A stretch of 58,805 nucleotides of DNA from Planctomycetia bacterium. Lineage in GTDB: Bacteria > Planctomycetota > Planctomycetia > Pirellulales > UBA1268. Position 1 is the stretch's first letter. Every line of letters begins with the position of its first letter. The notes below the pieces were generated by a model that was not told the DNA's origin, searched no databases, and was given only the letters and a program-made list of their open reading frames with translations. The position numbers and the translations under genes are program-made. Shown here one piece after another: positions 22,920 through 53,954 of this stretch. Where the stretch lies: assembly GCA_037129475.1 (NCBI GenBank), contig JBAXUY010000006.1, forward strand, positions 1-58,805. Direction: 5' to 3'.

Positions 22920-25900
22920 ATGAGACGCTCACTCCTGCAATCTGCAACGGTGTTCGTGCGGCGTGCCGTGATCGGCATCGCGTGTGGCTTCGTATGCATG
23001 GCAGTCACCCACGCGCAGTCGATCACGTGGAGTGGCAGCACGAGCCCGCTGTGGAATGTGACAGGCAACTGGTTCGGGGGCGTTCAGCCCGGGGCGTCGA
23101 ACATCATCGTCTTCGGCACCGCCAGCACGGTCAATCTCTCAGGCACGCTCGGGGCGAATTTCTCCGTCGCCGGGCTCACTGTCGGCAGCACGCCGGGCAA
23201 CGTCTCGATCAGCGGTAACACGCTGACGCTCGGTACCAACGGCATCGATATGTCGAGCGCAGCAAATTCGACCAACAGTCTCACGATTGGCTCAACGCTG
23301 AACTTCAACGCAACGTCGAATGTCAACGTGGCATCTGGGCGCTCGCTGACCTGGAATGCCTCGGGTGCAAACTTCAATTCCGGCACCGTCACGTTCTCTG
23401 GCGCTGGGACGGTAGCGGCGAACATCGCAACGAATATCGCAAACACCTCGGGCTCCAATGCGACCGTCGTGCTTCAAAGCGGTACGTTTTCGATCGGGAA
23501 CGGCCCGAATCTCATGATCGGGAATGCAAGTAATACGCTTGGCTCGTTTATCAATAATGGTGGCACAATCACGCACCAATTCGGGGCATTTCAGATTGGT
23601 TTTTCCGGTTCGGGCGCTTTCTTACAGACGGCCGGATTGACGCAGGTCTCTGTCTTGCGGTTCAAGACGGGCGATCTCCGCATCTCAGGTGGCACTTTTT
23701 CAGCGAACACCTTCGATGAGATGGCGAATAGCGCGAGCAATGTTGCGTCCATCACGCTTACTGGCGGCACAACGACGCTCCCCGCCTTTCCGACGACCCG
23801 CGGCACAGGCGCCACGGCCACTGTCACGTTTGATGGCGGCGTGCTGCGGCCGAGGGCCACGAGTTCCGCCTATCTGCAAGGACTGACCAACGCCTACCTC
23901 ACCAACAACGGTGCGTTCCTCGACACCAACGGCAACGACATCACGATCGCCCAGGTCCTGCAGGACGGCACTGCCGCAGGGACGGCTGGTCGGCTCACTA
24001 AATCCGGCGCTGGAACTTTGACGTTGACCGGATCGAACTCGTACAGCGGTGGCACCGTGATCAACGCCGGAGCGATTCAGGTCAAAGGCGAATCGCTTCC
24101 GAACGCCGGCCTCGGCACCGGCGCGCTCAACATCGCGAACGATGCGGCCGGACTGATTGTCTGGTGGAACACGGCCAACAGCACCGGAACGATTGCGAAC
24201 AATGTCACGATCAACAGCAGCGTGAGTCCCACTGCGACCAAGGAGGCCATCTTCCTCGACGGCGGGAACGGCGGAAACCTCCTGCTTTCGGGTTCGGTGA
24301 CGCTGTCAAACGCTGCGAGTTCACTCGGTTCGTATCAAAGTCAAATGATCACGATCACCGGAAAGGTGACGGGGACAGGCGGCCTCAACAAGGGCATGGG
24401 AGCGGCGAACAACACGGGGAGCCTCGTGCTGTCCAACACGGCAAATGACTATTCCGGCAACACCACAGTCGTTTCGGGTGTTCTCCGACTCGGTGCGTCG
24501 AACGCGGTGCCGTTTGGGGCTGGCAAGGGCAACCTCGTCCTCAACGGAGGTGCGAACAGTTTCCAAGCAGGAACGTTCGATCTAAATGGTTTTAATCAAA
24601 CGGTCAATGGACTGAGCGGAACTGCGAACACAAATCTTGGCCGGGTGGTGAACAATGCGTCGGGCACGAGCACGCTCACCATCGGAGCCAACAACACGAC
24701 GAGCAGTTTTGCCGGCCAGTTGGCCGACGGCGGCGTCGGCAAGGTGCTCGCGCTCAGCAAAACCGGCAGCGGCACCCTCACGATTTCAGGTAGCAACACC
24801 TACACGGGCACGACGACGCTCTCGGGCGGTGCTCTTTCCTTGGGCGGATCGTCGGCACTCGCCGGCGGTGGAAGCATCACATTCAACGGCGGAACGCTTC
24901 AACTGACTGCCAGTAATGTGCTCGACTATTCGGTAAGGATCGTTGGCAGCGGAAGCGCGATTTCGCTCGACACGAATTCGCAGAATGTCACGCTCGCGAG
25001 TGCGCTGGCAAGTTCCAATGTCGGGGGGCTCTCGGTTCTTGGGAGCGGGACGGTCACGCTGCAAGGCGCCAATGCGTATGGCGGCGCGACGGCGCTCCAA
25101 AATGGCGTCATGATGCTCGACTCGGGAAACGACAGGCTGCCGACTGCCACCACCCTGACGCTGGGCGCTGCGGGATCATCGGCGAAGCTCGTTCTCGGAG
25201 CATTGGGAGTCGCCCGAAACCAGACGCTTGCCGGCTTGCTTGCGACCGGCAGTGGAGGAAGCGTCGTGGGCCATGCAGCGGCGAATTCCACGCTTACGTT
25301 GAACATTGCCGCATCCAATACGTTTGCGGGCCAACTCGGGGGCGGCAGTACGAACGAAAATAATCTTGCCCTGGTCAAGTCTGGAGCGGGAACGCTCAAC
25401 CTCACGGGAACGAATTCCTTCAGCGGTGGAACGACCGTTAACGCGGGTATGCTCGGACTGTCGAATCTCGCCGTGACGAACATCGGGCTCGGCGGCGGGA
25501 ACCTGAACATCGCAACTGACGGCGCTGGCCTAAGGGTGTGGTATTCGGCGGTCGGTAGCGGGACAATCGCGAACAACATCACGCTCAATAGCTCGGTCAG
25601 CACCGACCCCGCCAAGGAGGCGATCTTTGTCGATGGTGGCGGTGCCAACAGCCTCACGCTTTCCGGAACGGTGACGCTTTCGAATGCCGCCAGTTCGATC
25701 GGTTCGTACTGGACAAACTCCGTGGCGATCACAGGCAAAGTTACCGGAGTAGGCGGTCTCTCGAAGGGCATGGGAGCAGCAAACAACACGGGCATGCTCA
25801 CGCTTTCAAACGCCGGAAATGATTATTCTGGAAATACGGCTGTCGTGTCTGGAACGCTTCGGCTCGGGGTGACGAACGCGGTGCCGTTCGGCACCGGCAA

Positions 25901-27623
25901 GGGGAACCTCGTATTGAACGGCGGCACCGCGAGTTTTCGGGCAGGATCGTTCGATCTAAACGGCTTCGATCAGACGATCAATGGCTTGAGCGGAACCTCG
26001 AACACGTTTCTGGGCCAGGTGGTCAATAACGCCACCGGCACAAGCACTCTCACAGCGGGTGCCAACGACACGACGAGCAGCTTTGCAGGCCAGCTGTCCG
26101 ACGGCGGCGTCGGCAGAGTGCTTGCGGTCACAAAAACCGGCGCGGGCACACTCACGCTTTCTGGAAGCAGCAACTTCACCGGTGCCACGACGATCGCGGG
26201 CGGTGTTCTTTCCGTCGCCTCGGGCGGCATGCTCGCGGGATCGACGGGAGCAATCGTGATCAATGGCGGAGAGTTGAAGTACAACTCTTCATCCACACTC
26301 TCGCGGTCGATCACGTTCACGGCCGGCACGATCTCCGGCACCGGCTCGATCGGTACGGCGGTGACGGTCAACACCGGTGACGTTCTTTCCCCAGGCAACT
26401 CCCCTGGCGTGCAGAACTACACGAACGGCCTCACGTTCGGCTCCGGCGGCCAATACATCTGGGAGATCAACAACTGGGCCGGCTCCCCAGGTACGGGATA
26501 CGACCAACTCGCCGTGGCGGGAAGCGCGCTCAATATCACGGCCACGAGCGGCAGCACGTTCACTGTCGCTGTGACCGGGCTTACGGCGGGCAACGCATCA
26601 GGTGCCGTGCCCGGCTTCTCCGCGACGTCGGGCACCGGCACGTCTTTCACGATCGCCACGTCGTCGGCCGGGATCACCGGCTTTGACAAGACGAAGTTCG
26701 CCGTCGATACGAGCGGCTTCACGAACAATAACGCGCTCCCCGCCAGCGCTGGCTTCTGGGTGTCGCAGTCGGGCAGCAACATGCTTCTGAATTACGCGCC
26801 GTCGGCGACGCGTTCGCTCTCCGCCGCCACAAGCGCTGCCCAGATCATCGTGGGCGGCACGGCCACGATCTCGGCCAGTGTGATCAATGCCGGTGTTCCG
26901 GCGAGCAATCCTGATGCGCTGAGCTATACGGGGCTTTCCGTCGGCAACGGCGTGACGCTTGGATCGACGAGTGGCGCTGGCGTCACGGCGGGCGGGACGA
27001 GCACGACCTCCGGGGCGTTCAGCACCGTCACGGCCGGCACGTACACGTTTACGCCGAGCGTGGCCACGGCGACCAACACCAACATCGGCACCAATGCCCT
27101 CGTCGGCTCCACCGGCGCGGCCACCGTGACCGTGCTCGACCACGCCACGTCGAGCCTCTCGGGGACCGGCGCTGTCCTGAGCGCGGTGCTGAATCTTGGC
27201 ACCTGGGACTACGGCGTCGGGGCGTGGACGGTCGGCACGAACACCGGCACATTCTCGGTCTTCAACCTCGCAAGCCTCGCGGGGGCGTCGCTCACGGCCG
27301 ACCTGTCGCTGAACGGCTACACCGCGAATGGCGGCGGCTTCTCCACGAATCTGAATGCCTACTCCGACATCCTCGGTGGACAGTCGTCGCCCTTCACGAT
27401 CACCGTCGATCCCTCATCGTTCCTGACGTCGGGCACGCAGTCGAAGACGTTCACCCTCACGATGGCGGATAAGACGGGGCTCTCGGGTGGCGCGGCCACC
27501 AACACGCTCACGGTGACGGCGAATGTCGTCGTGGTGCCGGAGCCGAGTGCCGCGATGCTCGCCGGGCTTGCGGTCTTTACGGCCTGCTGGGTCGCGTGGA
27601 GACGGCGATGCCCTGACGCCTGA
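22920..27623 (+). CDS. Autotransporter-associated beta-strand repeat protein with PEP-CTERM sorting signal
   Basis: Many LTKSGAGTLTLTGSNSYSGGT repeats; LSPGNSPG; C-terminus VPEPSAAMLAGLAVFTACWVAWRRR; signal peptide; no autotransporter barrel seen. Confidence 0.9.
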   Translation: MRRSLLQSATVFVRRAVIGIACGFVCMAVTHAQSITWSGSTSPLWNVTGNWFGGVQPGASNIIVFGTASTVNLSGTLGANFSVAGLTVGSTPGNVSISGNTLTLGTNGIDMSSAANSTNSLTIGSTLNFNATSNVNVASGRSLTWNASGANFNSGTVTFSGAGTVAANIATNIANTSGSNATVVLQSGTFSIGNGPNLMIGNASNTLGSFINNGGTITHQFGAFQIGFSGSGAFLQTAGLTQVSVLRFKTGDLRISGGTFSANTFDEMANSASNVASITLTGGTTTLPAFPTTRGTGATATVTFDGGVLRPRATSSAYLQGLTNAYLTNNGAFLDTNGNDITIAQVLQDGTAAGTAGRLTKSGAGTLTLTGSNSYSGGTVINAGAIQVKGESLPNAGLGTGALNIANDAAGLIVWWNTANSTGTIANNVTINSSVSPTATKEAIFLDGGNGGNLLLSGSVTLSNAASSLGSYQSQMITITGKVTGTGGLNKGMGAANNTGSLVLSNTANDYSGNTTVVSGVLRLGASNAVPFGAGKGNLVLNGGANSFQAGTFDLNGFNQTVNGLSGTANTNLGRVVNNASGTSTLTIGANNTTSSFAGQLADGGVGKVLALSKTGSGTLTISGSNTYTGTTTLSGGALSLGGSSALAGGGSITFNGGTLQLTASNVLDYSVRIVGSGSAISLDTNSQNVTLASALASSNVGGLSVLGSGTVTLQGANAYGGATALQNGVMMLDSGNDRLPTATTLTLGAAGSSAKLVLGALGVARNQTLAGLLATGSGGSVVGHAAANSTLTLNIAASNTFAGQLGGGSTNENNLALVKSGAGTLNLTGTNSFSGGTTVNAGMLGLSNLAVTNIGLGGGNLNIATDGAGLRVWYSAVGSGTIANNITLNSSVSTDPAKEAIFVDGGGANSLTLSGTVTLSNAASSIGSYWTNSVAITGKVTGVGGLSKGMGAANNTGMLTLSNAGNDYSGNTAVVSGTLRLGVTNAVPFGTGKGNLVLNGGTASFRAGSFDLNGFDQTINGLSGTSNTFLGQVVNNATGTSTLTAGANDTTSSFAGQLSDGGVGRVLAVTKTGAGTLTLSGSSNFTGATTIAGGVLSVASGGMLAGSTGAIVINGGELKYNSSSTLSRSITFTAGTISGTGSIGTAVTVNTGDVLSPGNSPGVQNYTNGLTFGSGGQYIWEINNWAGSPGTGYDQLAVAGSALNITATSGSTFTVAVTGLTAGNASGAVPGFSATSGTGTSFTIATSSAGITGFDKTKFAVDTSGFTNNNALPASAGFWVSQSGSNMLLNYAPSATRSLSAATSAAQIIVGGTATISASVINAGVPASNPDALSYTGLSVGNGVTLGSTSGAGVTAGGTSTTSGAFSTVTAGTYTFTPSVATATNTNIGTNALVGSTGAATVTVLDHATSSLSGTGAVLSAVLNLGTWDYGVGAWTVGTNTGTFSVFNLASLAGASLTADLSLNGYTANGGGFSTNLNAYSDILGGQSSPFTITVDPSSFLTSGTQSKTFTLTMADKTGLSGGAATNTLTVTANVVVVPEPSAAMLAGLAVFTACWVAWRRRCPDA

Positions 27624-27709
27624 CCAGCCGCGCCGGAGTTCTCGGCGTAGGATTGGGCTGGGCTGGCGATGATGCGGGGGATTCGAGCCCCGCTCTCAAG
27701 GAGGCAGCG

Positions 27710-28696
27710 GTGCAGACATCTCTGGTTTTGCTGTGGCGTCGACGGGCCGCGTTTACGTTGATCGAACTGCTCGTGGTGATCGCGATCATCGGGCTGCTCG
27801 TTGCGCTCTTGATTCCGGCGGTGCAGGCTGCGCGGGAGGCGGCCAGACGCAATGCGTGCACGAACAACCTGAAGCAGTGGGGACTCGCCATGCACGAGCA
27901 CCACGACGCCTTCCGGGCCCTGCCGTACGGCACGAACCGGGTGTATCCGCTCGGCAAGGAATCCGAGACCGCAGGGTGGACGCAGCGGCGCACGTTCGTC
28001 GTGTCGCTCTGGCCGTTCCTCGAACAGACAGGCCTCGCGAATGCCTACGATCCGACGCGAGGCTTCTACGACACGCGGTCCAATGCATCGGGCCGCTCGA
28101 ATCTGCAGCTCGTTGCGACTCCAATCGCTTCCTACTACTGTCCGAGTGATCGGCCCGGCGCGATGTGGAAAGGTGATGGATTTGTCCGGTGTCGCCTGAA
28201 CTACGTTTCAAACTGGGGGCCACAATATATCTTTAATTCCACGCCAAGCGTCATCCGCACGGCTCCGTTTGGCTTGTTGTCGGTCGGATCCGGCGGCTTC
28301 GCGACGTGTGTGCCATACCGCACGAAGTTCGGCGAGATCACCGACGGGCTCTCCAAGACGTTGATGCTGTCAGAAATGCGCACTCCGATACAAGACACAA
28401 CGACCGACTCAAGGGCGGATGGCATGAGCGACGGAGGCTGCTCATGGTTCATGACCGGGAACACGCCTAATTCCGGGATCGACAACACCCCCGGGTGCGA
28501 CCAGTCGCTCGATCAGGCCACGATGCCCTGTGTGACCACGGCCCATTCATGGCTGACAGCGCGCAGCAGACACGCCGATGGAGTGAATGCCGTGTTTTGC
28601 GACGGCGCCGTGGCATTCGTGAAGGATTCGGTCACGTTGGTGACCTGGCGATCGCTGAGCACCATGAATACCGCAGACACGATCAATGCCTACTGA
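27710..28696 (+). CDS. DUF1559 family prepilin-type N-terminal cleavage/methylation protein with H-X9-DG motif
   Basis: [40 protein letters not shown]; YCPSD; ITDGLSKT; RSRHADGVNAVFCDG; AGGAGG before GTG 27710. Confidence 0.92.
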   Translation: MQTSLVLLWRRRAAFTLIELLVVIAIIGLLVALLIPAVQAAREAARRNACTNNLKQWGLAMHEHHDAFRALPYGTNRVYPLGKESETAGWTQRRTFVVSLWPFLEQTGLANAYDPTRGFYDTRSNASGRSNLQLVATPIASYYCPSDRPGAMWKGDGFVRCRLNYVSNWGPQYIFNSTPSVIRTAPFGLLSVGSGGFATCVPYRTKFGEITDGLSKTLMLSEMRTPIQDTTTDSRADGMSDGGCSWFMTGNTPNSGIDNTPGCDQSLDQATMPCVTTAHSWLTARSRHADGVNAVFCDGAVAFVKDSVTLVTWRSLSTMNTADTINAY

Positions 28697-28708
28697 ATTG
28701 TTGCCCCG

Positions 28709-29137
28709 ATGAAAAAGTGTGTCGAAAAATCATCATGGACTCGGCTGTGGCCGGCAGTCGTGTTAGCCGCAATGTGCGGATGCGGTCGGCCGCCGACGAC
28801 GGTTGGCGGTGTGATCACGTGCAACGGCAGCCCGCTCGCGAATGCAGCCGTACAGTTCATTCCGGCCGATGGAGATGGCCAGGTTAGCCACGCATTCACC
28901 GATGCGGAAGGACGCTACGTTGCCAAGGTGTCGCCCACCCGTTTGATCGTGACGGTCAACGCACCAGTCCCCGCCGGCAGGCGAAAGGCCTATGACATGC
29001 CCGACAGTCCGATGGTGGATGTGATGGTCGAGTCGCTCCCGGAACACTTCAGTGATCGAGACCGTTCCGAGCTCGTCGTGTCGGCGGTCGAAGGGCGGCA
29101 CACGCTGGCGGATTTTGCGCTCGAGCGGAAGCCGTAG
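28709..29137 (+). CDS. Lipoprotein with carboxypeptidase-regulatory-like (transthyretin-like) domain, DUF1559 partner
   Basis: Lipobox-like LAAMCGC; VGGVITCNGSPLANAAVQF.P, TDAEGRY, LPEHFS..S.L. Confidence 0.75.
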   Translation: MKKCVEKSSWTRLWPAVVLAAMCGCGRPPTTVGGVITCNGSPLANAAVQFIPADGDGQVSHAFTDAEGRYVAKVSPTRLIVTVNAPVPAGRRKAYDMPDSPMVDVMVESLPEHFSDRDRSELVVSAVEGRHTLADFALERKP

Positions 29138-29153: not shown

Positions 29154-29879
29154 TCATGCATCCGAACGCGGGCCGTAGATCTTTGCCACGGCCTGGGCCC
29201 GGGACCGGACGTGGAGCTTTTGGTAGATCCGCTCGATGTGCGTGTGCACCGTCGAGTAGCTCACCTTGAAGTGGGAAGCGATCTCCTTGTACAGGTAGCC
29301 TCGGGCGAGGAGGTCGAGCACGTCCCGCTCGCGCGGCGAGAGAGCCGCCTCAATCAGCTCCCGCTGCGGGTTGGCTTCACGGACGGCTGGTTTGGCCGGC
29401 TGTGTTGTAGGTTCTGCGAAGGCCTGAACGAGCTTTCTCGCGATATTGCTCGTGAGCGGGGCGCCTCCGCCGATCACGTCGCGAACAGCCGATAGCAACT
29501 GTGCGGCGCGAATCGGCTTGAGCAGGTAACCCTTGGCCCCGGCTGCCAGCGACTGATAGAGCACATCTGTGTTGTCATACACCGTGAGCATCACCACTTG
29601 CACGTCCGGCAGCAGGCCTACCAACTCGCGCACACACTGCACACCGTCCATCTTCGGCAGGTTGACGTCCATGATCACCACGTTGGGCCGCCGCTCGGCC
29701 ATCTCGCGCAGGGCCTCCTCGGCGGAACCAAACGTGCCGACGCACTCGATCTCCGGGTCGCCCTGAAGAAAGCCGGCCAAGGCCTGGCGGGTGGCCTTGT
29801 CGTCTTCCACGATGGCGACGCGGATGAGATCGCTGGTGCTCGTCCGTGTGGTGCGCACGATCGGGGTGGTCTTGGTCAT
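29154..29879 (-). CDS. NarL/FixJ family response regulator (REC + LuxR HTH)
   Basis: VAIVEDD, MDVNLPKMDG, GAKGYLLK; LSPRERDVL..LARGYLYKEIA...TVHTHIERIYQKLHV. Confidence 0.95.
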   Translation of the reverse strand: MTKTTPIVRTTRTSTSDLIRVAIVEDDKATRQALAGFLQGDPEIECVGTFGSAEEALREMAERRPNVVIMDVNLPKMDGVQCVRELVGLLPDVQVVMLTVYDNTDVLYQSLAAGAKGYLLKPIRAAQLLSAVRDVIGGGAPLTSNIARKLVQAFAEPTTQPAKPAVREANPQRELIEAALSPRERDVLDLLARGYLYKEIASHFKVSYSTVHTHIERIYQKLHVRSRAQAVAKIYGPRSDA

Positions 29880-29903
29880 GGGGATGAACTCTCGTCGGGC
29901 TTT

Positions 29904-31619
29904 TCAGGACGTTGAAACCGGAACCGATAGCTGGATGGATGTGCCCTTGCCAGGCTGGCTCTCGCAGGAATACGTACCGCCCACCTGCTGCATGCGGCGT
30001 TGCATGTTGGCGAGTCCTTTGCCACTGGAGGAGCCGCGGGCGGCCTCGGCCGGCATGCCGTCGCCGTCGTCCTCGACGAGAATCCGCAGCCGGTTGTCGA
30101 CCACGGCGAGCCGCAGCGTGATCGTGGTGGCGCGGGCATGTTTGACGGCGTTGTGGAGCGCCTCTTTGGCGGCGAGGAACAGGTTGTGGCGAACGTTGGA
30201 AGGTAGCGGGACGTCGGGCAGCCGGGGCGGAAGGTCGATTCGGCAGCACCCACCGCTGGAGGCCACGAAGTCCTGAGCATATTTGCAGAGATAGGCTGAA
30301 AACGGCTCGAGGGCGTCGTTGTGGGGGCTGATCGCCCAGACGATCTCGTTGAGATGCTTCGCCAGCCCCATGGCGTTGTCGAAGATCTGGTCGAGAAACC
30401 GGCGGCTCTCGTCGGGCGTGATCGCTGGGCTGCGGACGAGGTCGCTGAGCATGCCGATGCGGGTGAGGTTTGCCCCGAGGTCGTCGTGAAGGTCCTGGGC
30501 GATCCGCATCCTATCGGCGGCGAGCATCCGCTGCTGCTCGGCCGCGGCGAGCTGCCGCTGCATGCGCTGGCGGGCGACCTGCCGGATCCCGAGGGCGACG
30601 AGCCCGGTGCCGCCAGCCGCCGAGGCGGCCCAAAACCAGGGCCGCGCCCAGACGGGCGGAGGCACCTCGATGACGGCTGTGTATTCGGGGCTCTGGGGGA
30701 CGCCGAGGGCCGAACACTCGCTTATCCGGAAGCGATATTCGCCGGGTGGCAGATCGTCGTAGGTCACGGAATACGCATCGCCAACGCCCACCGCATAGAG
30801 TTCGCTCCATTCGACGAGCAAGTCGTCGCCCGGCGTGACTGCCGGCGAGATCGTCGACGTGGTGATCCACCCGCCAAGGCCTCGGGGGTCGTCGTCGATG
30901 AGCGCGAGCGCGTGCCGCACCGGCGGCCCAGGAAGGCGAACCACCCGTCCGACACCGGGCCGCGTGCCGTCTCGCGCCCAGCCTTCTGGGACGCCGAACG
31001 GGTCGTCGAGATCTTCGCCGTCTTCAAAATCGCTCTGGAAGATCTGTCGGTCGGGAACGCCTTGCTTTCCGACGACGGAGATTCGAATCGACTCGAACAC
31101 GCGCACGCCCGTCGTCTGCTCCGGCCCGGCCGAGATCAGCCAGAGCATCAGCTTCGCGGCCCGTGGCGGCACCGAGATCCGCTTGCTGTGTTTCTGGAAG
31201 GGAGACGTCTCGATCTGCCCGGTCCAGCCCTGTGAGCGGCCTTTGACAAGGCTTTCGTCGCCATCGACGGGCTGGTTGTTCGCATCTATGAAGCGGACCT
31301 GGAATCGCATCAGGCCGTGGTCGGGATCGCGCCAGTTGTCATCGCGGCCGTCGAGCCGATACCGGAGCTGCACCGGCACTCTGTCAAGCCGCACTGGGTC
31401 ACCGAAGGTCATCTTCAGCCGCGAAGGTCGGTCGGGCAGCAGGTAGATGTCTTCAGTGCCACGTCTGCCGGAAGGGGCAATGACGCGGTCGTCAGCGATC
31501 AGGCGGTCGAGGGTCACCGGTGCGACTGCCGAGTCGCTCGCAACGGTCGGACGAAGCGAGCAAGCGGCTGAACAAAGCGTTCCCGCCAGCCCCGCAGCGA
31601 CGACCGTGTACAGCCTCAT
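29904..31619 (-). CDS. Sensor histidine kinase (HisKA_3 + HATPase) with extracytoplasmic Y_Y_Y domain containing a CBM-like insertion
   Basis: RIAQDLHDDLG, EALHNAVKHA, DDGDG, GKGLANM; LRYRLDG...W and YDDLPPGEYRFRI; TM segment after PPVWARPWF. Confidence 0.9.
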   Translation of the reverse strand: MRLYTVVAAGLAGTLCSAACSLRPTVASDSAVAPVTLDRLIADDRVIAPSGRRGTEDIYLLPDRPSRLKMTFGDPVRLDRVPVQLRYRLDGRDDNWRDPDHGLMRFQVRFIDANNQPVDGDESLVKGRSQGWTGQIETSPFQKHSKRISVPPRAAKLMLWLISAGPEQTTGVRVFESIRISVVGKQGVPDRQIFQSDFEDGEDLDDPFGVPEGWARDGTRPGVGRVVRLPGPPVRHALALIDDDPRGLGGWITTSTISPAVTPGDDLLVEWSELYAVGVGDAYSVTYDDLPPGEYRFRISECSALGVPQSPEYTAVIEVPPPVWARPWFWAASAAGGTGLVALGIRQVARQRMQRQLAAAEQQRMLAADRMRIAQDLHDDLGANLTRIGMLSDLVRSPAITPDESRRFLDQIFDNAMGLAKHLNEIVWAISPHNDALEPFSAYLCKYAQDFVASSGGCCRIDLPPRLPDVPLPSNVRHNLFLAAKEALHNAVKHARATTITLRLAVVDNRLRILVEDDGDGMPAEAARGSSSGKGLANMQRRMQQVGGTYSCESQPGKGTSIQLSVPVSTS

Positions 31620-37013: not shown

Positions 37014-37214
37014 TCATGGCGCAGTATGCGTTGGAGCGACCGGCGTATCGCGGGCCGCCCCGTCACCCTGCGCCCACGCCTTTTGAAACGCATCGATGGT
37101 GGCTTTTTCCTCCTCCGGGCTCAAGGGTTTTGCCAATTGCAACGTGGGTGTCGAGAAGCCGCAGCCAGAAGCTGCCAGAAGCAGCCAGACGCTCAAAAGC
37201 CAGACGTGGTTCAT
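37014..37214 (-). CDS. Small putative lipoprotein downstream of DUF1559
   Basis: [18 protein letters not shown] lipobox-like signal; start overlaps the DUF1559 stop; 66 aa. Confidence 0.6.
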
Positions 37215-38143
37215 AGGTCGTTCATGGAAAACGTCTTGCCGTCGCGCCGCCCGCCGGCAGCCACGTAGGGTGTCGCGGACACGTTGAAACTCACGACCCG
37301 TACCGCTCCGTCCCCCATGACGAAGACCATGCCGCCGGGATGCGATGAACCAAACGTTCGGAACGACGTGGTGCTTCCGGTCGTGACGTCCGCCTGGGGC
37401 ATCCAGCTCGCGTTACAGACTCGCGTCGTGTCGAAATCTCCGGCGCCGGTGGCAACGTAAGGCTCGTTGTCGTTGGCACACAGTTCCGGGGGCAGAAACA
37501 TCGTTTTCTCACCGACGAGAAACGTATGCGACGTTCCGTCAGGCACGCCGCCGTCGAGCGAGACTCGAGCCACGCCCGTCGGGACGAACAGGCCGTCGAA
37601 TTGCGAGTATTTTGTCGGATCGTTGTAGATCGTGACCGTGCCGAACGTCCCCACGCAGCCTGCGTAGTCCGTGCGGGCACCGAGGCCGCCGACGCCATTC
37701 TGCACCCCCGCAGGCCGCCGCGATGGACAATAAAACTGTGGCACCGGCGTGCGGAAGATCATCAGGTCATTCGCATCGGGAAACCCTGTGAGGTCGGGGA
37801 GATCCCGAAGTATGCCGGCATCGAGAAAGGGCAAGATGAACCACGGCCAATCGTAGTCGCTGCGATCAGACGGGCCGCCGACGTACGACGCGCCGTTGGG
37901 CATGGTCACAGGGATGTCGGCCCCGTTTTTTCCAGCTCCCGGCAGACACCGAAAGGCTCCCTGGTGGAGGTGAAGCGCGAGCCCGATCTGCTTGAGGTTG
38001 TTGGAGCAACTGCTCCGACGGGCCGACTCCCGGGCCGCCTGGACTGCCGGCAGCAGCAGGGCGATGAGCAAGCCGATGATCGCGATCACCACCAGCAACT
38101 CGACGAGCGTAAACCCATCCCGGGAACGCCGTCGAAAACGCAT
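37211..38143 (-). CDS. DUF1559 family prepilin-type protein
   Basis: [34 protein letters not shown]; YCPSR; [12 protein letters not shown]; [14 protein letters not shown]; start ATG 38143. Confidence 0.92.
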
Positions 38144-38165
38144 GGTACGTACTTCCGCGGAAGCC

Positions 38166-44100: not shown

Positions 44101-45323
44101 AAAAGGCGACCGCTGCTCAACGTGTATGCCGCCTTGACGCCCGTTCCAGAGCCGCCAACCGAGCCGATGTACAGATTGTTGAGCGTGTTCGCGTTGGTGA
44201 CACCCGTGAAAACATCGGCACCGGTGGTCACACCGAACTGCGCCACACCGCCGGTCTGGTTCATGAGTACGCTGGGCGGCGTGGCTGTCGCCACTGCAAT
44301 TGCCCCAATCTGGTTGTTCGACCCTACGCCCTTGGCGACATCGACGAGCCCGCTCTTGAGGTTGAAGTTCGCGACAGGCGAAGACGTCGTACCGCTGCCC
44401 GCCCCTTCAAGCTGAAACGAAGCGCCATTCGAAATCACGCTGGAGCCCGTGATTTTGAGCGTGCCTCCGTCAACGATCCACGATCCAACCGCCGTACCGT
44501 TGACGGTGAGGAGATAGCGACCGCCACCGGCTGCGAGCGTACCGCCGTAGATGCGAACGTCGCCCGCCATCGCAGAACCACTGTTTCGCCCGATATCGTT
44601 GGTCTGCCAGAGACCGGAATTGACCGTCAACGAACCGCCGTTGGCAACTGAGATACCGCCGCCCGTTGCGTGCGAGATGACATTTGTGCCGGACGACGTG
44701 TTCAAGCCAGAGCCAAACGCAGTTGCCTTGTTGATCGTGAGGGCTTGGTTCGCCGCTGTCGAGTAGATGGCGAGGTTGTTGCCGGCCGACGGGTCAAACA
44801 TCACCGTACCGTTGTTGCTGCCGGCACCGATCGTGAACGCACTCGCGCTCGGCGAGCCGGCGCTGCCCTGTAATACTCTGCCTGCGATGCGAAGCGTGCC
44901 GCCGGTACCGATTTGCCACGTTTGTGTTCCACCGATCGCAAGATTCGCCGAGATCGTATTGGTGCCACTCGTCTGACCGGCGGTGGTGATCCCGCTCGTC
45001 CCGAGCGTGAGCAGGTTGGCCGAGTTGTTGCTCCCGAGCGTCCACCCGCCGCCGGTCGTGGTGAACGAAAGCCCGGTGATCGAACCGCTCGCCGTGAGCT
45101 GCGGTTGATTGGCGGTCACCGTGCCCGCGAACACGCCGGTGTCGGTCGTGAGGTCACTGACCGGAGCTGTGCCCCCGACCCAGTTGCCGTTCAACCAGAA
45201 GTCGGTGCTGGTGGTGCCGTTCCACGTTCTCGGGGCGGCAGTGGCGACGGCCGGCAGGAGAGCCGCCGCTACAGTACAGAGCAGAACCGAGCCATGCTGT
45301 CGTCGTGACGTATACGAGATCAT
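38166..45323 (-). CDS. Giant autotransporter-associated beta-strand repeat protein with PEP-CTERM (2385 aa)
   Basis: Signal peptide; numerous [19 protein letters not shown] repeats; YAPGNSPG; C-terminus [29 protein letters not shown]. Confidence 0.9.
41302..42687 (-). repeat. Five tandem 276-bp (92-aa) coding repeats
   Basis: Anchor AG(T/C)TTC recurs at 41302, 41578, 41854, 42130, 42406 and 42682, an exact 276-nt period. Confidence 0.9.
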
Positions 45324-45628: not shown

Positions 45629-46141
45629 CTACTTGGCGGGAGGTGTCTTCAATCCAGACGTCATTTCGAAGCGATAGACGCCAACGCCACCGCCGCCGGT
45701 TTTTACGATGATGCGAAGCGGTGAAGTGTCCTTCTTCGTGTAGACGTCGGGGACGAAACTGCGCACGGGTACCTCGGTCGTCGTGTCATCTTCGGCAGGC
45801 GGGGGTTTTCCTCCGAAGTCGTATCCTGTTTTCATGACCGTCATCACGTATTCGCCGGCCACCGCACCAGCCAACGGTCGTCCGCCCCGTGTGGAAGTGA
45901 GGTGAAACACACCGCGCGAATCCGATCTCCCCACGGCCGGCAGTCCCTGTTCACCGATCGGCGAGATGGCCACGGTCGCGTTGTCCAACGGCTTCCCGTC
46001 CAGAAGTACTATTCCTTCAACATACTCCACGTTCGGTCCCTGCTTGCCGCACCCCACGACAGCGAGTGCGCAGATCAAACCACACCAGGCATCGACCCAA
46101 GGAGAAGACGTCCGACGTGAATGGAAACGAGAAGGAGTCAT
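45629..46141 (-). CDS. Lipoprotein with carboxypeptidase-regulatory-like domain, DUF1559 partner
   Basis: Lipobox LAVVGC; VEGIVLLDGKPLDNATV..P, SDSRGVFHL, GAVAGEYVMTV, VPDVYT...SPL. Confidence 0.8.
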   Translation of the reverse strand: MTPSRFHSRRTSSPWVDAWCGLICALAVVGCGKQGPNVEYVEGIVLLDGKPLDNATVAISPIGEQGLPAVGRSDSRGVFHLTSTRGGRPLAGAVAGEYVMTVMKTGYDFGGKPPPAEDDTTTEVPVRSFVPDVYTKKDTSPLRIIVKTGGGGVGVYRFEMTSGLKTPPAK

Positions 46142-46187
46142 GAGACCCGTCTTTCACAGCAGTCGACTGCAAGGAACAGAGCAACCG

Positions 46188-47357
46188 TCATTGATCACGG
46201 TACGTGTCTGCCCCGCGCGCCGAGCCCATCGCGCCCCAGACGCCGAATACTGACGTCCCTTTGAAATTGACGGCAGGCGTCTGGTTCGGGTCGCCTGCAT
46301 CGATAGTCTCGTTCACGAATCTGACGGACCCATCGCACATGGCCACGGTCACACCGCCCGGGTGGTAACTGCTGGCCGTCATGGCAACCACGGCTGCGTT
46401 ACTGCCGACTGAGGTGTCAAGCGAACTTGATCCACTCGCCCGAGTGCAAGCGGCAGAATTTGGCGGGAGAACGGCGTAGAAACCACAAAACCCCGCCGTG
46501 CCGTCGTACCACCGTTGGCCTTTATTTCCATCGGACTTGTTCGTGACACTGTTCGCGTAAACATCTCCTGCGAGTTCAGCCATGCAAAGGGACGCATTCG
46601 GTGACGGACCAGCTGATGTCACGGCCGGCCACGCGATGTCCGAAGCCAAGCCTGAGCGAATTCGCTTGTCACCATTTACGCCGACGGCGGCCTCGGCAAA
46701 CATGATCGTCTTCGAAGTGCCATCTGTCATCCGACCGCTCGTCATAAAATCCTGAACCGTAAACGGCGTGTTTGAAATAGCTCCCATGCCGAAGGGCCCG
46801 CGCCAAGTACCCCCCGTGTTCTTGGCAGCGTAGACATCACCGCGGTTGCAGTGGTAGTTGGTGTCTCCAAGCACGCCATTTCCCGATGCCCCGAAACCGC
46901 CGTCGGACGGGCACTGCAGAATCTTGGGCTGCTGCCGCATCGGGTTGTCGGTGGCCGACGAGCTGCCGCCCCAGCCAGCGACGGCTTTCACGCAGATGGC
47001 GTCATATAAAGCCGTTTCTTCGCAGAACGGCATGACCCGCGGCAAACAACCGAAATACCACCAGTTGCTGTCCGATGACGTTCCAGACATCCCGTTGGCG
47101 ATGTATTGATTTCTCCAGCGGATATCGCCGATTCCAGGCGGGAACTGCCGTGAGGCAGATTCGAGGCTCAAAACGCCGAGCGAGATTTGCTTCAAATTGC
47201 TCGAACACTTCGCGCGTCGGCCCGCTTCACGGGCCGACTGCACTGCGGGCAGCAACAGTCCGACAAGCACGCCGATGATCGCAATCACGACGAGGAGCTC
47301 CACCAACGTGAACCCCGTAGGCGCACCCCGGAAACGAGTCGTGGGACGACAGAGCAT
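46188..47357 (-). CDS. DUF1559 family prepilin-type protein
   Basis: [34 protein letters not shown]; QCPSD; [12 protein letters not shown]; [18 protein letters not shown]; start ATG 47357. Confidence 0.93.
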
Positions 47358-47454
47358 GGCCAATTCCCTGATGGCGAGCGATACGAACACAATGGCCGGA
47401 AGGGGGTGCAAAACCACAGCCTCTCCGAGTTCACCGCTCCACCCAACCAATTCG

Positions 47455-47497
47455 AATCTAGACTGAACCTCGCCACAGCGGAATGAGAAATTGGGAA
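47455..47497 (-). promoter_or_regulatory. Putative activator-dependent promoter of the DUF1559-lipoprotein operon, same architecture as 45380-45422
   Basis: Minus strand TTCCCAATTTCTCA-TTCCGC-17 nt-TAGATT. Confidence 0.6.
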
Positions 47498-47572
47498 GTG
47501 CGTCACGGATTCGGCAGGGGCGTTCCTGTGCGAAGGACCCCGTGAACCGCGGGCATGGCGTAGGATGACGGC

Positions 47573-49786
47573 ATGCGGCCCGCCGGCTTTCTGTATGTTG
47601 TCATCATCTTGTCTTGCGCTGTGGCACCGGCGGCCGATCCGACCGCCGAGTGGCACGTCGCCCCGACCGGTGACGACGCCAACCCGGGCACGAAGGAGGC
47701 ACCGTTTGCCACGCTCGAGCGGGCCCGGTCGGTAGCCCGGGACCACGACCGCTCCGCGGACGACGCCCAGCCGGCGACGATCTGGCTCGCCTCAGGCATT
47801 CACCAGCGCACGAAGCCATTCGTTCTCGGGAGCCGCGACACAAAACTCGTGATCCGGGGGCCGGCCGATCGATCTGCCCGCATCCACGCGGGGCGAATCG
47901 TCGATCACTCGCTGTTGCGAAAGCCTTCCGCGCCGCTGCTCGATCGGCTGACTGCCGCTGCGCGCGAGCAGGTGCTGGCCATCGACCTAGCGGCCATCGG
48001 CCTCGCCGAACTTCCCACACTCCCTGAGATCTTCAATGACGGCGGCGGCCTTCCCGATCTCACCGTGGACGACATGCCGCTGCCACTCTCCCGCTGGCCG
48101 AACGAAGGTCCGACGACGATCGAGAAGGTGATCGACCGCGGCGAAGGGGTGGGCGGGACGCGCCGCGGCGGCGTGTTCATCGCCGGCGACGACCGCGTGG
48201 GCCGCTGGCCGGTGGCCGAGGGCGTGTGGCTCGAGGGCTATTGGAGGGTGCCATGGGATCCGGCCACGATCCGCGTGGCGGCGATCGATCCGGCCACGCG
48301 ACGGATCGACCTCACCGCAGCAGTGCAGGGGGGCATCGGGTCGAAGTACGCACCGAAGGGCGAGCTCGGCGACGGCAAGGAGCCGTGGTGGGCCGTGAAT
48401 CTGCCGGAGGAGATCGACCTCCCCGGCGAATGGTGCATTCACTTTCCTACGAAGACGCTTCTCCTCCTGCCGCCCCCTGGGTTCGGGCCGCAGTCGGTGG
48501 TGCGGCTCGCCGTGCAGCGAGAACCGCTCGTGGTGATCGAAGAGAGCTCGATGGTGGCACTGCAGTCTCTTACCCTCGAAGGCGGGCTCGGCGACGGCGT
48601 CGCGATCACCGGCGGCTGCAAGGCGCTCGTGCTCGGCTGCCTGATCCGCAACCTCGGCGGCAACGGGGTGACGGCGATCGGCGGTACGCGGCACGCGATC
48701 CGTGGCTGCGACATGCATTCGCTCGGCGAGGCGGGCGTCATTCTGGCCGGGGGTGATCGAGCGACACTCGCACCCTGTGCCCATGCCGCCCTCAACAACG
48801 ACATTCATCACGTGGGGATGCGGCGGAAAACCTGGGCCGCCGCGATCCACGTGGGCCGGACGTCGAAGGAAAGCCGTCCAATCGACGCCGTCGGCTGCCG
48901 CGTGGCCCACAACTTCCTCCATGATCTTCCCCACTCGGCCGTACTCTATACCGGCAATGAAAACATTTTCGAGGCCAACGAAGTGTGTCGCGTGGCCCTG
49001 ACCTCAGGCGACGTTGGGGCTTTTTACACGTCGCACGACTGGACGAGCCATGGCAACGTGCTGCGGCACAACTTCGTGCACGACTGCCCCAGGGCCAACG
49101 CGTTCTATCTCGACGATGGCGACAGCGGCGACACGGTCGAGGAAAACGTCATCGTTCGTGCCGCCTGTGGCCCGTTCATCGGCGGCGGCCACGACAACAT
49201 CGTGCAGCACAACCTGATCGTGGAGTGCCCGATCGGGATCCACATCGACTCGCGGGGCGTCTCACGCGGCTACGCGACCAACAAGAACCTGCGGAACCGG
49301 CTGGCCGAGACGCCGATCGAGAGCGAGGTGTGGCGGAAGAAATATCCCGCGATCCCTGCGCTGCTCGATTCGAAACACGACGCAGGTGTGCCCCACGGCA
49401 ACGTGATCGTAGGCAACGTTACGGTCCGCTGCGGAACGCCTTACCGCAAGTCTGGCAAGCCGGCCGAATTGGTCGGCGTGAAGGAGGGGCTCAACTTGGA
49501 CCTTGGCACGGGCTCGGGCGCAAACGATCCCGCGTTCGCGAATCCAGGCCAACTCGACTATGCGATCGAGCCGACCTCGCCGATCTTCCGTCGCCTGAAG
49601 GACTTTCCTCAGATACCCTTCGCATCGATCGGCCTTCGGATGGATGCGTATCGCGCCGTGCTGGCCGACCCGTCAGTGCGTGTGCGGGCCAGCGATGGAG
49701 TGTCGGGCGGCGTGGAGGCGATCTCATCGCAAATCGACATCGATACCACCAACCAGCAATCCGAACGCGGGGTCAATGGTTCCTGA
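47573..49786 (+). CDS. Secreted right-handed parallel beta-helix protein (pectate-lyase/GH141-like fold), probable carbohydrate-active enzyme
   Basis: Signal peptide; [22 protein letters not shown]; SRWPN; [12 protein letters not shown]; DVGAFY; FYLDD; repeated N.I/HN beta-helix coils. Confidence 0.8.
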
Positions 49787-49876
49787 TGCTGCGTTCAGTG
49801 GCAGGCGGGATAGTTTCCCAGTCACGCTGGATGGCCTGGATGTGATGCCCGTCGGACACGAGCCCGGAGTGCGAGG

Positions 49877-51809: not shown

Positions 51810-51944
51810 GCGGCGAGATCCTCTCCCGAGCCCCATGCCCGGCGACAACTAGGTATGACGCAGCCTCCCGGAAATAAACCAATGCCTGCGGAACGGGGCA
51901 TGGCCCGAACGGCGTGGGAGCATCGCCAGGCGGACGGGTGACGG

Positions 51945-53954
51945 TCAGGGTTCGCCGCGAATGGGGCGACTATCGGTGCGGAACGGTGTCGCTGGCAGGC
52001 CTGTATCGTCGGTCAGATTCGTGCCCGCCGTGTCGTTGATCCAGGCATACCGCAAGGCCTCGGGCGCGGAGACGCCGGCGGCCCTGACCACGACCGCATC
52101 CCCCTCGATCATGGCCTCGGCGTCCACGAACTGGCCGCCCTGCGGGGCCAGCGCGAACAATCGTGGCGGCTTGCCGTCACGCGTGCGAAGGGAACCTGTC
52201 GTCTTGAACGAAATCCGGAAAGCGTCGTTCTGAACGGCAGCATCGCGCATCACCGGCCCGGAACTGCGCACATCGCGTCCGTAGACCTGGGCGAGGGCGA
52301 CGAGCGCGAGCCGCTTTCCGATGTCGCGCTTGTTGGCGGGATGCACGTCGTCCGATTCGCCGATCTCGGTCGCCACCGAGAGCCCAACATTCGGCAAGCT
52401 CGTGGCGGTCATCGCCTGCGCTTCCCGCACCTCCGCCCACCCGGTGTCACGCGCGTTGCCGGCCTTCCAGTTTGGCAACTGCTGCACGATGAACGGCACC
52501 TCGCGGCCCCACGTCTGGCGCCACGAGGTAATCAGGAGCGGTAGGAGCGAGCGATAGTCGTACCCCCGGCTGCCGTCTCCTTCGCCTTGATACCAGAGCA
52601 CGCCTTTGAGTGCGGACGGCGCGAGAGGATGGATCATCCCGCAGTAGAGCGCGCCCGACGTGTGGGCGGCGTCGCCCTCCGGCGTTTTCGGCCGTGCGGC
52701 CCGGGCCTGCGCCGACAGTGGAGGATACGTGCGTTCGACGCGCACGTCGCAAGCGTCGTCCACTGGTGCGAGTGCCTTCAGGCCGATATCCCGAAACGAG
52801 CGGGTGAGCGGCGGCCGGTCGCCGAGATGCGTGGCGAACCTGAACACGAGCACATTGTCGCCCGCCCGGACGTCGGCGGCCGGCACGTCGAAGTGTGTGT
52901 ACGCCTTATAGAAAGCCGGTGGGGAGCGGCCAAAGTCGCCGAGCTTCTTTCCGTTCCAGGAGGCCGTGACGTACTGCTCATTGACTTGGCCCAGATCAAG
53001 GCGAAACCCCTTGCCGGCTTTTGCTGTCGGCACGGCAATCACCTTGCGGATCCACGCTACACCGCCGTCGGGCAGCCCGAGTTCGGACCACTTTTTGTTG
53101 ATAATGCCCGGCAGCCAGCCTTCACCCCGACCCGCCGCCCATTCGGCCGCCGCAGGTTCCGCTGCGATCCCCGCGCGGCCATTGGCTTCTTCCCAGGCAG
53201 CCACGCGAGCTGGAAATGAAGCGATCTCCTCTGGCAGCCGCCACAGGTTGGCACGCTGCTGTTCGGCCCGCGCCTTGAAACGCGGTACCGTATCGAGCGC
53301 CTGTGGGGCGATCCAACTCTCGGCCGACGTGCCGCCCCACGCCGACAGGATCAGCCCGACCGGCACGTTCTGGTCGGCGTGGATATCGCGCGCGAAGTAG
53401 AAGCCGGCCGCTGTGAACGCCTTCACGGTCGCCGGCGAGCACGTCGTCCACTTCACCGGCACGCTCGCCGCCGGCTCGAGCGCGGGCTCACGGGCGACGG
53501 TGCCCTGACGGACGAGCGGAAAGTGTGCGGTGACGAGATCATTCGCATAGTCCGGCTTCAGCTCGAGGGCTGCCATCGTGTAGGCCATGTTCGACTGGCC
53601 GGAGCAGAGCCAGACGTCACCGACGACGACGTCGTCGAACGTGAGCCTGTTCCTTCCCTCGATGACGAGCTGCTGTGGCTGCGAGGAGGATGTGAGTTCG
53701 GGCAGCGTGGCCTGCCAGCGGCCGTCGGAATCGGCGGTGGCCGTGGCGTTGGCTGCTCCGAACGTCACGCGAACCTGCTCGCCCGGGGCGGCCTTGCCCC
53801 ACACGGGCACGGGCATCCCACGCTGCAGCACCATGCCTGTGGAAAAGAGGCCGTTGGGCACGGCGTCCGCGGGTACCGTCCCGGCAAGCGATGCCAGCCA
53901 CAGTATTCCAACCGCCACGCCGCGTGTGATCCACAGGATTCGTGTTCTCGTCAT
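51945..53954 (-). CDS. Sialate O-acetylesterase (SASA) family carbohydrate esterase with inserted beta-sandwich
   Basis: MVLQRG.PVPVWG, GDVWLCSGQSNM, SAWGGTSAESW, GVLWYQGEG, DVHPANK, PFRTD; start ATG 53954 with signal peptide. Confidence 0.9.
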   Translation of the reverse strand: MTRTRILWITRGVAVGILWLASLAGTVPADAVPNGLFSTGMVLQRGMPVPVWGKAAPGEQVRVTFGAANATATADSDGRWQATLPELTSSSQPQQLVIEGRNRLTFDDVVVGDVWLCSGQSNMAYTMAALELKPDYANDLVTAHFPLVRQGTVAREPALEPAASVPVKWTTCSPATVKAFTAAGFYFARDIHADQNVPVGLILSAWGGTSAESWIAPQALDTVPRFKARAEQQRANLWRLPEEIASFPARVAAWEEANGRAGIAAEPAAAEWAAGRGEGWLPGIINKKWSELGLPDGGVAWIRKVIAVPTAKAGKGFRLDLGQVNEQYVTASWNGKKLGDFGRSPPAFYKAYTHFDVPAADVRAGDNVLVFRFATHLGDRPPLTRSFRDIGLKALAPVDDACDVRVERTYPPLSAQARAARPKTPEGDAAHTSGALYCGMIHPLAPSALKGVLWYQGEGDGSRGYDYRSLLPLLITSWRQTWGREVPFIVQQLPNWKAGNARDTGWAEVREAQAMTATSLPNVGLSVATEIGESDDVHPANKRDIGKRLALVALAQVYGRDVRSSGPVMRDAAVQNDAFRISFKTTGSLRTRDGKPPRLFALAPQGGQFVDAEAMIEGDAVVVRAAGVSAPEALRYAWINDTAGTNLTDDTGLPATPFRTDSRPIRGEP

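Follow-up and report, generated by a model that had tools for sequence, protein, structure and literature searches.

The window analysed here is a stretch of 58,805 nucleotides from a bacterium of the class Planctomycetia and corresponds to contig C260 of a metagenome-assembled genome (MAG) of 3.67 Mb (G000; 303 contigs, 94.8% complete). It holds three units in which a gene for a prepilin-like DUF1559 protein is followed by a gene for a lipoprotein, and two of these units stand directly behind the gene of a giant, beta-helical PATR/PEP-CTERM protein. In an original prediction, the two resulting triads with their surroundings were read as parallel loci resembling the polysaccharide utilization loci (PULs) of Bacteroidota. 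Protein families in the window were assigned by scanning 29 open reading frames (ORFs) with Pfam and NCBIfam (E values in brackets), and for the MAG a simple gene calling of our own yielded a set of 2953 genes.

The first triad is located on the forward strand (22875-29137). Giant 1 (22875..27623; probable start at 22920, which fits the signal peptide) has 1582 aa with a signal peptide, seven PATR stretches (PATR 3.9e-35; TIGR02601 2.6e-36) and a PEP-CTERM anchor; its C-terminus consists of VPEP, a hydrophobic stretch and RRR and was read as VPEPSAAMLAGLAVF...RRR. It is followed by the prepilin-like DUF1559_1 (27653..28696; SBP_bac_10 1.1e-43, N_methyl 8.2e-8, H-X9-DG 8.4e-8), the mature part of which begins at FTLIELLVV (27752), 114 nt past the last sense codon of giant 1. 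LIPO_1 (28709..29137) starts 12 nt past the DUF1559_1 stop codon and encodes a 142-aa lipoprotein with the lipobox MCGC (Cys25), which belongs to the partner family described below (family HMM 9.4e-35; HMM, hidden Markov model).

The second triad is located on the reverse strand (45323-37014). Giant 2 (38166..45323) has 2385 aa with a signal peptide, 12 PATR stretches (PATR 1e-60) and a PEP-CTERM anchor, and shares 39% identity with giant 1 over 378 aa. The prepilin-like DUF1559_2 (37211..38200, likely start 38143; SBP_bac_10 2e-37, N_methyl 4.6e-8, H-X9-DG 2.2e-5) lies 38 nt past giant 2 and overlaps by 4 nt with the gene of a 66-aa lipoprotein (37014..37214; lipobox AASGC). For both triads, the predicted order of giant, DUF1559 gene and small lipoprotein gene was confirmed by Pfam and NCBIfam, and these databases together with the family HMM also confirmed a third DUF1559-lipoprotein pair on the reverse strand (47450-45629). 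This pair is composed of the prepilin-like DUF1559_3 (46188..47450, ATG at 47357; SBP_bac_10 2.3e-36, H-X9-DG 1.7e-9) and, 46 nt past it, LIPO_3 (45629..46141), which encodes a partner-family lipoprotein of 170 aa (family HMM 6.2e-37; lipobox VVGC). A lipobox is present in the small lipoprotein of each triad, but the 66-aa protein stands outside the partner family: the family HMM, which finds LIPO_1 and LIPO_3, gave no match to it, and judged by its sequence it is unrelated to both.

In a scan of the whole genome, the PEP-CTERM matches of giants 1 and 2 reached 25.9 and 22.5 bits (cut-off 20.7), whereas the full-length proteins, searched with hmmscan, stayed below the cut-off at 18.5 and 17.6 bits. 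Only PATR and PEP-CTERM were found in the giants by Pfam and NCBIfam, and neither giant has an autotransporter beta-barrel translocator domain in these databases. Giant 2 also contains an internal tandem repeat of 276 bp in 5.1 copies with 76% identity (41262-42668, reverse strand), corresponding to a unit of 92 aa. Tandem arrays of such kind can change their copy number.

The same arrangement was found repeatedly in the MAG. PF07596 gave 44 matches, corresponding to about 41 DUF1559 genes, and in 17 cases a DUF1559 gene is followed on the same strand by the gene of a homologous lipoprotein of about 130-170 aa, where about 0.3 cases would be expected by chance. The gaps between the two genes range from -35 to +47 nt, six of them being 4-nt overlaps, and the lipobox Cys is invariant across the 17 aligned lipoproteins. 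An HMM built from these 17 DUF1559-following proteins and run on the six-frame translation of the MAG detected 21 ORFs, 19 of which adjoin a DUF1559 gene (17 downstream of it and two directly upstream, on C276 and, as a weak match, on C90), and two are located elsewhere (C28, C223). For the giants, all ORFs carrying PATR and/or PEP-CTERM with a minimum length of 800 aa were counted, 26 in total, and 23 of these were evaluable, with at least 600 nt of contig beyond them. A DUF1559 gene with its pilin motif 21-114 nt further on follows nine of these 23 (about 0.3 expected by chance); this number includes C282:12978 and leaves out C35, where two genes stand between giant and DUF1559 gene. At two further giants located at contig ends (C8, C269), a pilin N-terminus is visible before the break. 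The cassette is therefore a recurrent module rather than a local coincidence, and the DUF1559-lipoprotein unit has been duplicated about 17-20 times in this MAG. In six of 16 pairs, the DUF1559 protein and its cognate lipoprotein have the same nearest paralogue (p=4e-4), which fits a duplication of the pair as a unit.

Several variants of the module were observed. In the operon C1:14311-21854, a giant is followed by a 658-aa beta-helix protein, a DUF1559 protein and a lipoprotein, and the beta-helix gene overlaps the start of the DUF1559 gene by 4 nt, which is the tightest coupling of an enzyme and a unit observed. On C24 (9666-10739), one DUF1559 gene precedes a gene for a 357-aa DUF4198 protein in place of the small lipoprotein. 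The lone partner lipoprotein gene C223:49663-50250 adjoins a DUF1080 gene (C223:48970-49515).

Outside the MAG, the lipoprotein profile found matches in 117 of the 121 class genomes sampled, often as many as could be scored per genome. For a comparison across genera, the best lipoprotein match in each of 20 other genera was inspected within about 20 kb of surrounding DNA. The lipoprotein gene adjoins a DUF1559 gene in 19 of the 20 (15 downstream, three upstream, one divergent), whereas a PATR/PEP-CTERM match stands beside the pair in none of the 20 loci. From these two counts it follows that the DUF1559-lipoprotein pair is the conserved core and the giant a facultative, lineage-restricted addition, and the giant was rejected as part of this core. 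Giant, DUF1559 protein and lipoprotein are thus not one obligate system, which weakens the original prediction. In the genus of the MAG, a DUF1559 and a lipoprotein gene follow four of 18 evaluable large PEP-CTERM proteins (20 taken); PEP-CTERM itself is common and was found in 15 of 15 genomes of this genus and in eight of nine other families of the order. In a draw of 151 genomes from the phylum, the lipoprotein profile matched 24 genomes: seven belong to the class and have 13-25 matches each, and each of the remaining 17 gave one or two matches, all weak, inside reading frames of 677-1372 aa. In this draw, only the seven class genomes contain full-length DUF1559 (E 1e-52 to 1e-69, with as many matches as could be scored), and eleven other genomes gave weak matches, often of the N-terminus only. 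Against 1.84 billion representatives, 57,236 matches of the lipoprotein profile passed E<=1e-3 and 28,091 also passed E<=1e-10, among them many proteins of 130-170 aa as well as multi-repeat giants. Database names for relatives of the partner family read 'hypothetical protein' only.

N_methyl was found in all three DUF1559 proteins of the window and in all 26 aligned paralogues, and E5 of the prepilin motif is invariant. The top residue has a frequency of 0.92 over residues 1-20 but of 0.17-0.44 over residues 61-260, in the variable head, where two invariant Cys, a TDG...GE motif and, at the C-terminus, the H-X9-DG motif are retained. In a profile comparison with 19 planctomycete GspG proteins by hhalign, DUF1559 aligned over 64 columns (probability 98.1%, E 1.1e-13), and PDB pilins matched the DUF1559 helix only, from residues 1-25 up to residues 1-65. 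The Verru_Chthon cassette protein D family (TIGR02596) was considered and rejected, as it reached 25.9-29.6 bits against a cut-off of 70 and covered only model positions 1-41. In the MAG there are 42 N_methyl matches, 40 of them in DUF1559 genes; the other two are on C140, beside an ATPase gene, and on C269, at the contig end after a giant. Genes for processing and assembly are present as well, comprising one prepilin peptidase (Peptidase_A24, C4), five T2SSE matches, T2SSF (L144:13616-14716) and one secretin (C244), in addition to one exosortase (PF09721 8.8e-62, C2:13685-14440). The DUF1559 proteins could represent the pilin repertoire of the organism, since they account for 40 of the 42 N_methyl matches and a canonical GspG domain (T2SSG, PF08334) has no match in the MAG.

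This pattern also bears on a secretion role, in which the DUF1559 proteins would act as alternative pseudopilins and each unit would adapt the single secretin/ATPase machinery to the export or display of adjacent exoproteins without any binding of glycans. Such a role agrees with the alignment to GspG, with one secretin next to several GspE-like ATPases and with operons shared between units and secreted proteins, where giants, beta-helix enzymes and esterases would be the cargo. As 71 of 81 genomes of the phylum draw have a T2SSG domain and this MAG has none, DUF1559 could fill the vacant place, but at 94.8% completeness a GspG gene may simply be unassembled. PEP-CTERM proteins would moreover be expected to take the exosortase route, for which the enzyme is present, a secreted neighbour is often lacking beside the pairs of other genera, and we know of no precedent for about 40 alternative major pseudopilins per one secretin. 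We consider this explanation improbable.

The Pfam name SBP_bac_10 hints at another possibility, namely that the head of DUF1559 binds solutes or oligosaccharides and, held by its class III signal peptide at the inner membrane or within an array resembling a pilus, feeds a transporter. A class III signal peptide on a large paralogous family and the MFS and sugar transporters near some blocks are in line with this, and a precedent is given by sugar-binding proteins with class III signals that are assembled by the Bas system, as described in PMC3047682. However, the 26 DUF1559 members did not give even a weak match to another solute-binding protein (SBP) family, and no ABC transporter stands beside the units of the window. 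We regard this explanation as very unlikely.

The partner lipoproteins showed weak similarity to CarboxypepD_reg (26.8 and 17.0 bits; E 6.8e-6 for LIPO_1), below the gathering cut-off of 32.3. In the PDB, the lipoprotein profile matched NOMO2 (1.3e-5) and a transthyretin-like protein (1.2e-4), and its structural neighbours in the Atlas include a CarboxypepD_reg cluster. The partner lipoprotein is probably a transthyretin-like beta-sandwich. A role in defence was considered, too, but none of nine cassette proteins matched a PADLOC family.

The surroundings of both triads contain secreted carbohydrate enzymes, as had been predicted, and all four families named (GH78/GxGYxYP, DUF1080, Beta_helix and SASA) were matched by Pfam. 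Upstream of locus 1, a secreted 1760-aa fusion of GxGYxYP domains and a GH78 alpha-L-rhamnosidase (11823..17105, reverse strand; Bac_rhamnosid6H 1.2e-93, Bac_rhamnosid_N 6.9e-49, GxGYxYP_C 1.5e-25) is the flanking glycan enzyme. It is followed on the strand of giant 1 by a planctomycete-type pair (17432..21981) of a PSCyt1/PSCyt2/PSD1 protein (17432-20515, forward; PSCyt2 4.9e-88, PSD1 3.7e-86) and a DUF1501 protein (20548-21981, forward; 3.1e-151). A gene for a 243-aa protein of the 3-keto-disaccharide hydrolase family (3keto-disac_hyd, DUF1080; 21956..22687, forward; 3e-36) starts within the last part of the DUF1501 gene and ends 188 nt upstream of giant 1. In locus 2, the gene of a right-handed beta-helix protein of 737 aa (47573..49786, forward; Beta_helix 7.6e-12, NosD 2.1e-6), a family with a pectate-lyase-like fold, is divergent from DUF1559_3 with 122 nt in between, and an 882-aa protein with a SASA carbohydrate-esterase domain is encoded at 51945..54593 (reverse; 1.2e-18). 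Pairs of PSD2-5/PSCyt3 with DUF1552 and of PSCyt1/2-PSD1 with DUF1501 often adjoin DUF1559 units elsewhere in the MAG (C271:8377-12421, C258:13016-15739, C248, C212, in addition to 17432-21981 of the window), and the latter pair also occurs in control regions (2/20). Outside the loci, a glycine riboswitch aptamer (RF00504, 60.8 bits) was detected at 8646-8757 (forward) within the 5' part of ORF 8393-11725, which encodes glycine dehydrogenase GcvP. The true GcvP start is therefore probably near 8801, and a codon-usage caller chose the same start.

A dedicated signal transducer with a CBM-like extracytoplasmic domain had been proposed for each cassette. Regulatory genes are indeed present at both. 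A two-component system convergent on cassette 1 (29154..31619) consists of a LuxR-type response regulator (29154-29879, reverse; Response_reg 2.3e-26, GerE 1.6e-16) and a HisKA_3 histidine kinase (29904-31619, reverse; HATPase_c 6.7e-16, HisKA_3 3.4e-8). At locus 2, there is a set of an ECF sigma factor (51288-51848, reverse; Sigma70_r2 3.4e-14, Sigma70_r4_2 4.1e-11), a 354-aa protein (50275-51339, reverse) for which Pfam, NCBIfam and PADLOC gave no match and which may be an anti-sigma factor, and an AraC-type helix-turn-helix (HTH) protein (49877-50278, reverse; HTH_18 8.4e-21). The CBM-like domain could not be substantiated, since the Y_Y_Y match of the kinase, located ahead of its membrane span, is weak and at 1.3e-5 and 25.5 bits stays under the cut-off of 26.6; two of four other cassette-linked kinases have likewise weak Y_Y_Y matches (4.7e-6, 4e-3). 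An own promoter motif for each cassette was not borne out, as sigma-70-like sites occurred at the level of shuffled sequence (2 vs 1.6; 1 vs 1.9), and in 12 cassette upstream regions no common motif beyond GC-rich k-mers was found. The sole element standing out upstream of giant 1 is the palindrome CCTGGAATCCAGG at 22783. Palindromes of the form CCTG-N3-5-CAGG precede three PATR giants and a solitary lipoprotein of the partner family (window 22783; C258:10764, C269:3851, C28:2295), these sites being four of 44 intergenic occurrences in the MAG; they could be regulator sites or due to chance.

To judge the neighbourhood statistically, up to four called genes (>=100 aa) per side of DUF1559 blocks outside the window were selected (212 chosen, 194 scanned) and compared with 196 control genes, for which the ten central genes were taken from each of 20 regions of 19.8 kb, chosen at random at a distance of more than 12 kb from any DUF1559 gene. 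As glycan enzymes we counted GH2, GH16, GH106, Beta_helix/Pect-lyase, SASA, GDSL_2, BD-FAE, Sulfatase, CBM96 and Laminin_G_3+DUF4450. Within the MAG, they made up 15 of 194 flanking genes and none of the 196 controls (Fisher p=2e-5), a comparison in which the controls were drawn only from contigs of at least 20 kb and the labels were assigned by the author in a non-blind manner, both of which count against it. By block, the numbers were 8/36 DUF1559 blocks and 0/20 control regions (p=0.04). Secreted glycan-active enzymes are thus statistically linked to the cassettes of this MAG, in agreement with the neighbourhood expected from the original prediction. Sugar regulators, transporters and catabolic proteins (GntR, AraC, PBP-AraC, MFS, FGGY, KDPG aldolase) occurred in flanks only and in none of the controls. 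According to tallies made by the author from Pfam scans of the window and the flanks, glycan enzymes accompany six of 12 triads and four of 24 other blocks (p=0.05), and eight of 12 triads have an adjacent regulator. Pairs of HisKA_3 kinase and LuxR regulator stand beside six DUF1559 blocks (window, C212, C258 with the regulator only at a contig end, C282 twice, C57). A set similar to the one beside giant 2, with ECF sigma factor, a protein like the 354-aa one and an AraC HTH protein, is located upstream of the C8 giant, and GntR- or AraC-type sugar regulators were found beside C1, C223, C230 and C64. These three regulator types (HisKA_3/LuxR, ECF/AraC, GntR/AraC) were absent from all 196 control genes. 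As predicted, Pfam detected neither a TonB-dependent receptor nor SusD nor an ABC family in the 29 ORFs scanned, and PF00593 (TonB-dependent receptor) had no match across the MAG.

The PUL-like interpretation is partly supported: it gains from the recurrent module, the enzyme enrichment, the regulators and the lack of a TonB receptor, but not from the composition of the triad, and the function of the cassettes in glycan use would have to be deduced from this context. Further observations limit it. A recognisable glycan enzyme lies within four genes in just eight of 36 blocks. Seen from the enzymes, a DUF1559 gene stands at a distance of up to about 10 kb from 4-5 of about 16 Beta_helix ORFs and from 1-3 of 15 DUF1080 ORFs, with about 16% expected in both cases from the sequence covered. 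In other genera, where the two nearest ORFs per side were considered and 70 of 131 candidate ORFs were scanned, a glycan-related gene was found near the pair in 4-5 of 19 cases, and many flanks are housekeeping genes (tRNA synthetase, OTCase, TatC, YidC, DNA polymerase I). The paralogue distance matrices of DUF1559 proteins and lipoproteins are not correlated (Spearman -0.04, p=0.64). In the DUF1559 head no T2SSG homology was detected, as the hhalign alignment ends at column 64, and no other Pfam family gave a recurrent weak match across 26 members. Finally, both loci of the window are lineage-specific, so that their co-location may partly reflect clustered accessory secretome genes.

The last point results from a comparison with relatives. 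The two cassettes had been described as parallel loci, and both are present, but conserved housekeeping genes lie between them (31695-36919), namely those for DUF308, DinB, a 191-aa protein and IleRS (33398-36919). The IleRS of the window is 79-86% identical to that of related MAGs, and the order PNP-IleRS-191aa-DinB-DUF308 is kept across 60 IleRS loci of relatives. PNP stands directly beside IleRS in five of the 60 loci (L038, L040, L058, L068, L085), and of all 60 only one (L090) holds any DUF1559 gene. In the window, about 18 kb comprising the whole of locus 2 (36920-54930) separate IleRS from the PNP-family gene (54931-56037), and no relative's IleRS locus gave an alignment to the locus 1 genes beyond DUF308. 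Given this conserved backbone, 36920-54930 and the side at 22-31 kb are lineage-specific islands, and the island G+C content is 0.60-0.66 compared to 0.66-0.70 elsewhere.

Co-location might accordingly reflect nothing but clustered accessory secretome genes, the unit having a general envelope or adhesion role unrelated to its neighbours. Besides the islands and the housekeeping flanks in other genera, the description of Tuwongella genes as 'evenly spread around the genome' (PMC8567305) and two P. limnophila paralogues that are reported as essential in rich medium (PMC10632474) are in favour of this. It does not explain the operon-tight spacing, with 21-114 nt between giant and pilin motif, 4-nt overlaps at lipoprotein genes and the same overlap between beta-helix and DUF1559 gene on C1, nor the recurrence of the same regulator types next to different units and the larger share of triads than of other blocks with glycan enzymes. 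We regard this explanation as somewhat unlikely.

We tentatively prefer, as possible though by no means established, a type IV filament reading, in which the DUF1559 proteins are pilins with ligand-specific heads and a lipoprotein partner and the triads are substrate-inducible surface modules. According to this reading, the single prepilin peptidase would cut the DUF1559 proteins, and the GspE/PilB-like ATPases, GspF and the one secretin would assemble them into pseudopili or fibres. For assembly, the proteins would use their invariant N-terminal helix, while the hypervariable head of 250 aa would give each paralogue its own ligand. The lipoprotein could contact the head as its cognate periplasmic partner, be it as chaperone, dock or co-receptor. 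A giant-led operon would then constitute a surface module induced by its substrate: the giant, presumably exposed as an exosortase-anchored adhesin, may hold a polymer or particle, the pilin unit may capture or retract the polymer, and adjacent enzymes may degrade it. A more far-reaching version appears unlikely to us, namely that DUF1559-lipoprotein units are interchangeable, substrate-specific heads of a TonB-independent fibre uptake of glycans based on type IV filaments. A genome would then encode about 40 specificities, each paired with a separate lipoprotein and in many cases with a giant, enzymes and a sensor of its own. If true, this system would be to bacteria what the bindosome is to archaea, and it would offer a functional alternative to SusCD.

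Within Planctomycetia, DUF1559 counts among the largest families of paralogues, the literature reporting 91 copies for T. immobilis and 68 for P. limnophila, and the entry of whole polysaccharides without TonB-dependent receptors is a standing question in planctomycete reviews. The literature on DUF1559/SBP_bac_10 deals with family expansion, fractionation and two essential paralogues. In the literature searched for DUF1559, SBP_bac_10, H-X9-DG, PEP-CTERM/prepilin and Verru_Chthon, no partner lipoprotein family or triad is described. The same literature describes no enrichment of enzymes or regulators, although the supplementary T. immobilis gene tables of PMC8567305, which were outside the search, may bear on flanking genes. 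The present analysis offers gene-level, testable candidates, i.e. an obligate pilin-lipoprotein pair and a subset wired to giants, enzymes and private regulators, and the prediction is directly testable because genetic tools exist for P. limnophila.

Compared with known systems, the DUF1559 proteins resemble type IV pilins and the pseudopilins of type II secretion systems (GspG/PilA) in their class III signal peptide G/A-F-T-L-x-E, the invariant E5 and the N-terminal helix, and the MAG encodes the peptidase, GspE/PilB-like ATPases, GspF and a secretin. They differ in their head of about 250 aa, which has no detectable similarity to T2SSG or solved pilins, and in the number of about 41 paralogues, about half of them with a dedicated lipoprotein gene. 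To our knowledge, such a gene is not a feature of known pilin loci. A pilin N-terminus with a bulky extra domain is also the design of modular pilins such as PilB of Streptococcus sanguinis, for which bioRxiv 10.1101/2021.01.27.428410 reports a module with vWA fold and shown adhesion, whereas the DUF1559 head is a predicted module known from sequence alone.

The giants, with PATR repeats, a VPEP-TM-RRR end (TM, transmembrane stretch) and an exosortase in the MAG, resemble PEP-CTERM/exosortase proteins with PATR (TIGR02601) passengers. Unlike autotransporters, they have no beta-barrel domain in Pfam, and a direct coupling of PEP-CTERM proteins to a pilin-like gene is not described in the literature searched.

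With the PULs of Bacteroidota (SusC/SusD and surface glycan-binding proteins, SGBPs), the cassettes share parallel loci with secreted enzymes, surface proteins and a private regulator, and the weak Y_Y_Y-like match in the kinases recalls hybrid two-component sensors. In contrast to PULs, no SusC-like receptor is encoded in the MAG, SusD is absent from the 29 ORFs scanned (no genome-wide SusD search was made), and the DUF1559 unit is an unreliable marker of enzyme loci. The Sulfolobus bindosome (PMC3047682) likewise has pilin-type signal peptides on substrate-binding proteins and a type-IV-filament-like assembly, but it is archaeal and uses classical ABC-type SBPs beside ABC transporters, neither of which was found here (26 members; window).

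The preferred filament reading would rather correspond to the planctomycete idea of 'fishing rod' fibres than to SusCD. In the available parts of PMC5394234 and PMC12078418, no genes are assigned to the fibres of crateriform structures, and a link to DUF1559 would be our own proposal. The fibres occur in the same class of organisms: dextran binds to the 12-nm, pilus-like fibres of crateriform structures (PMC5394234), and the 'fishing rods' hypothesis is stated for planctomycetes in PMC12078418. An uptake independent of TonB receptors is likewise proposed for this system.

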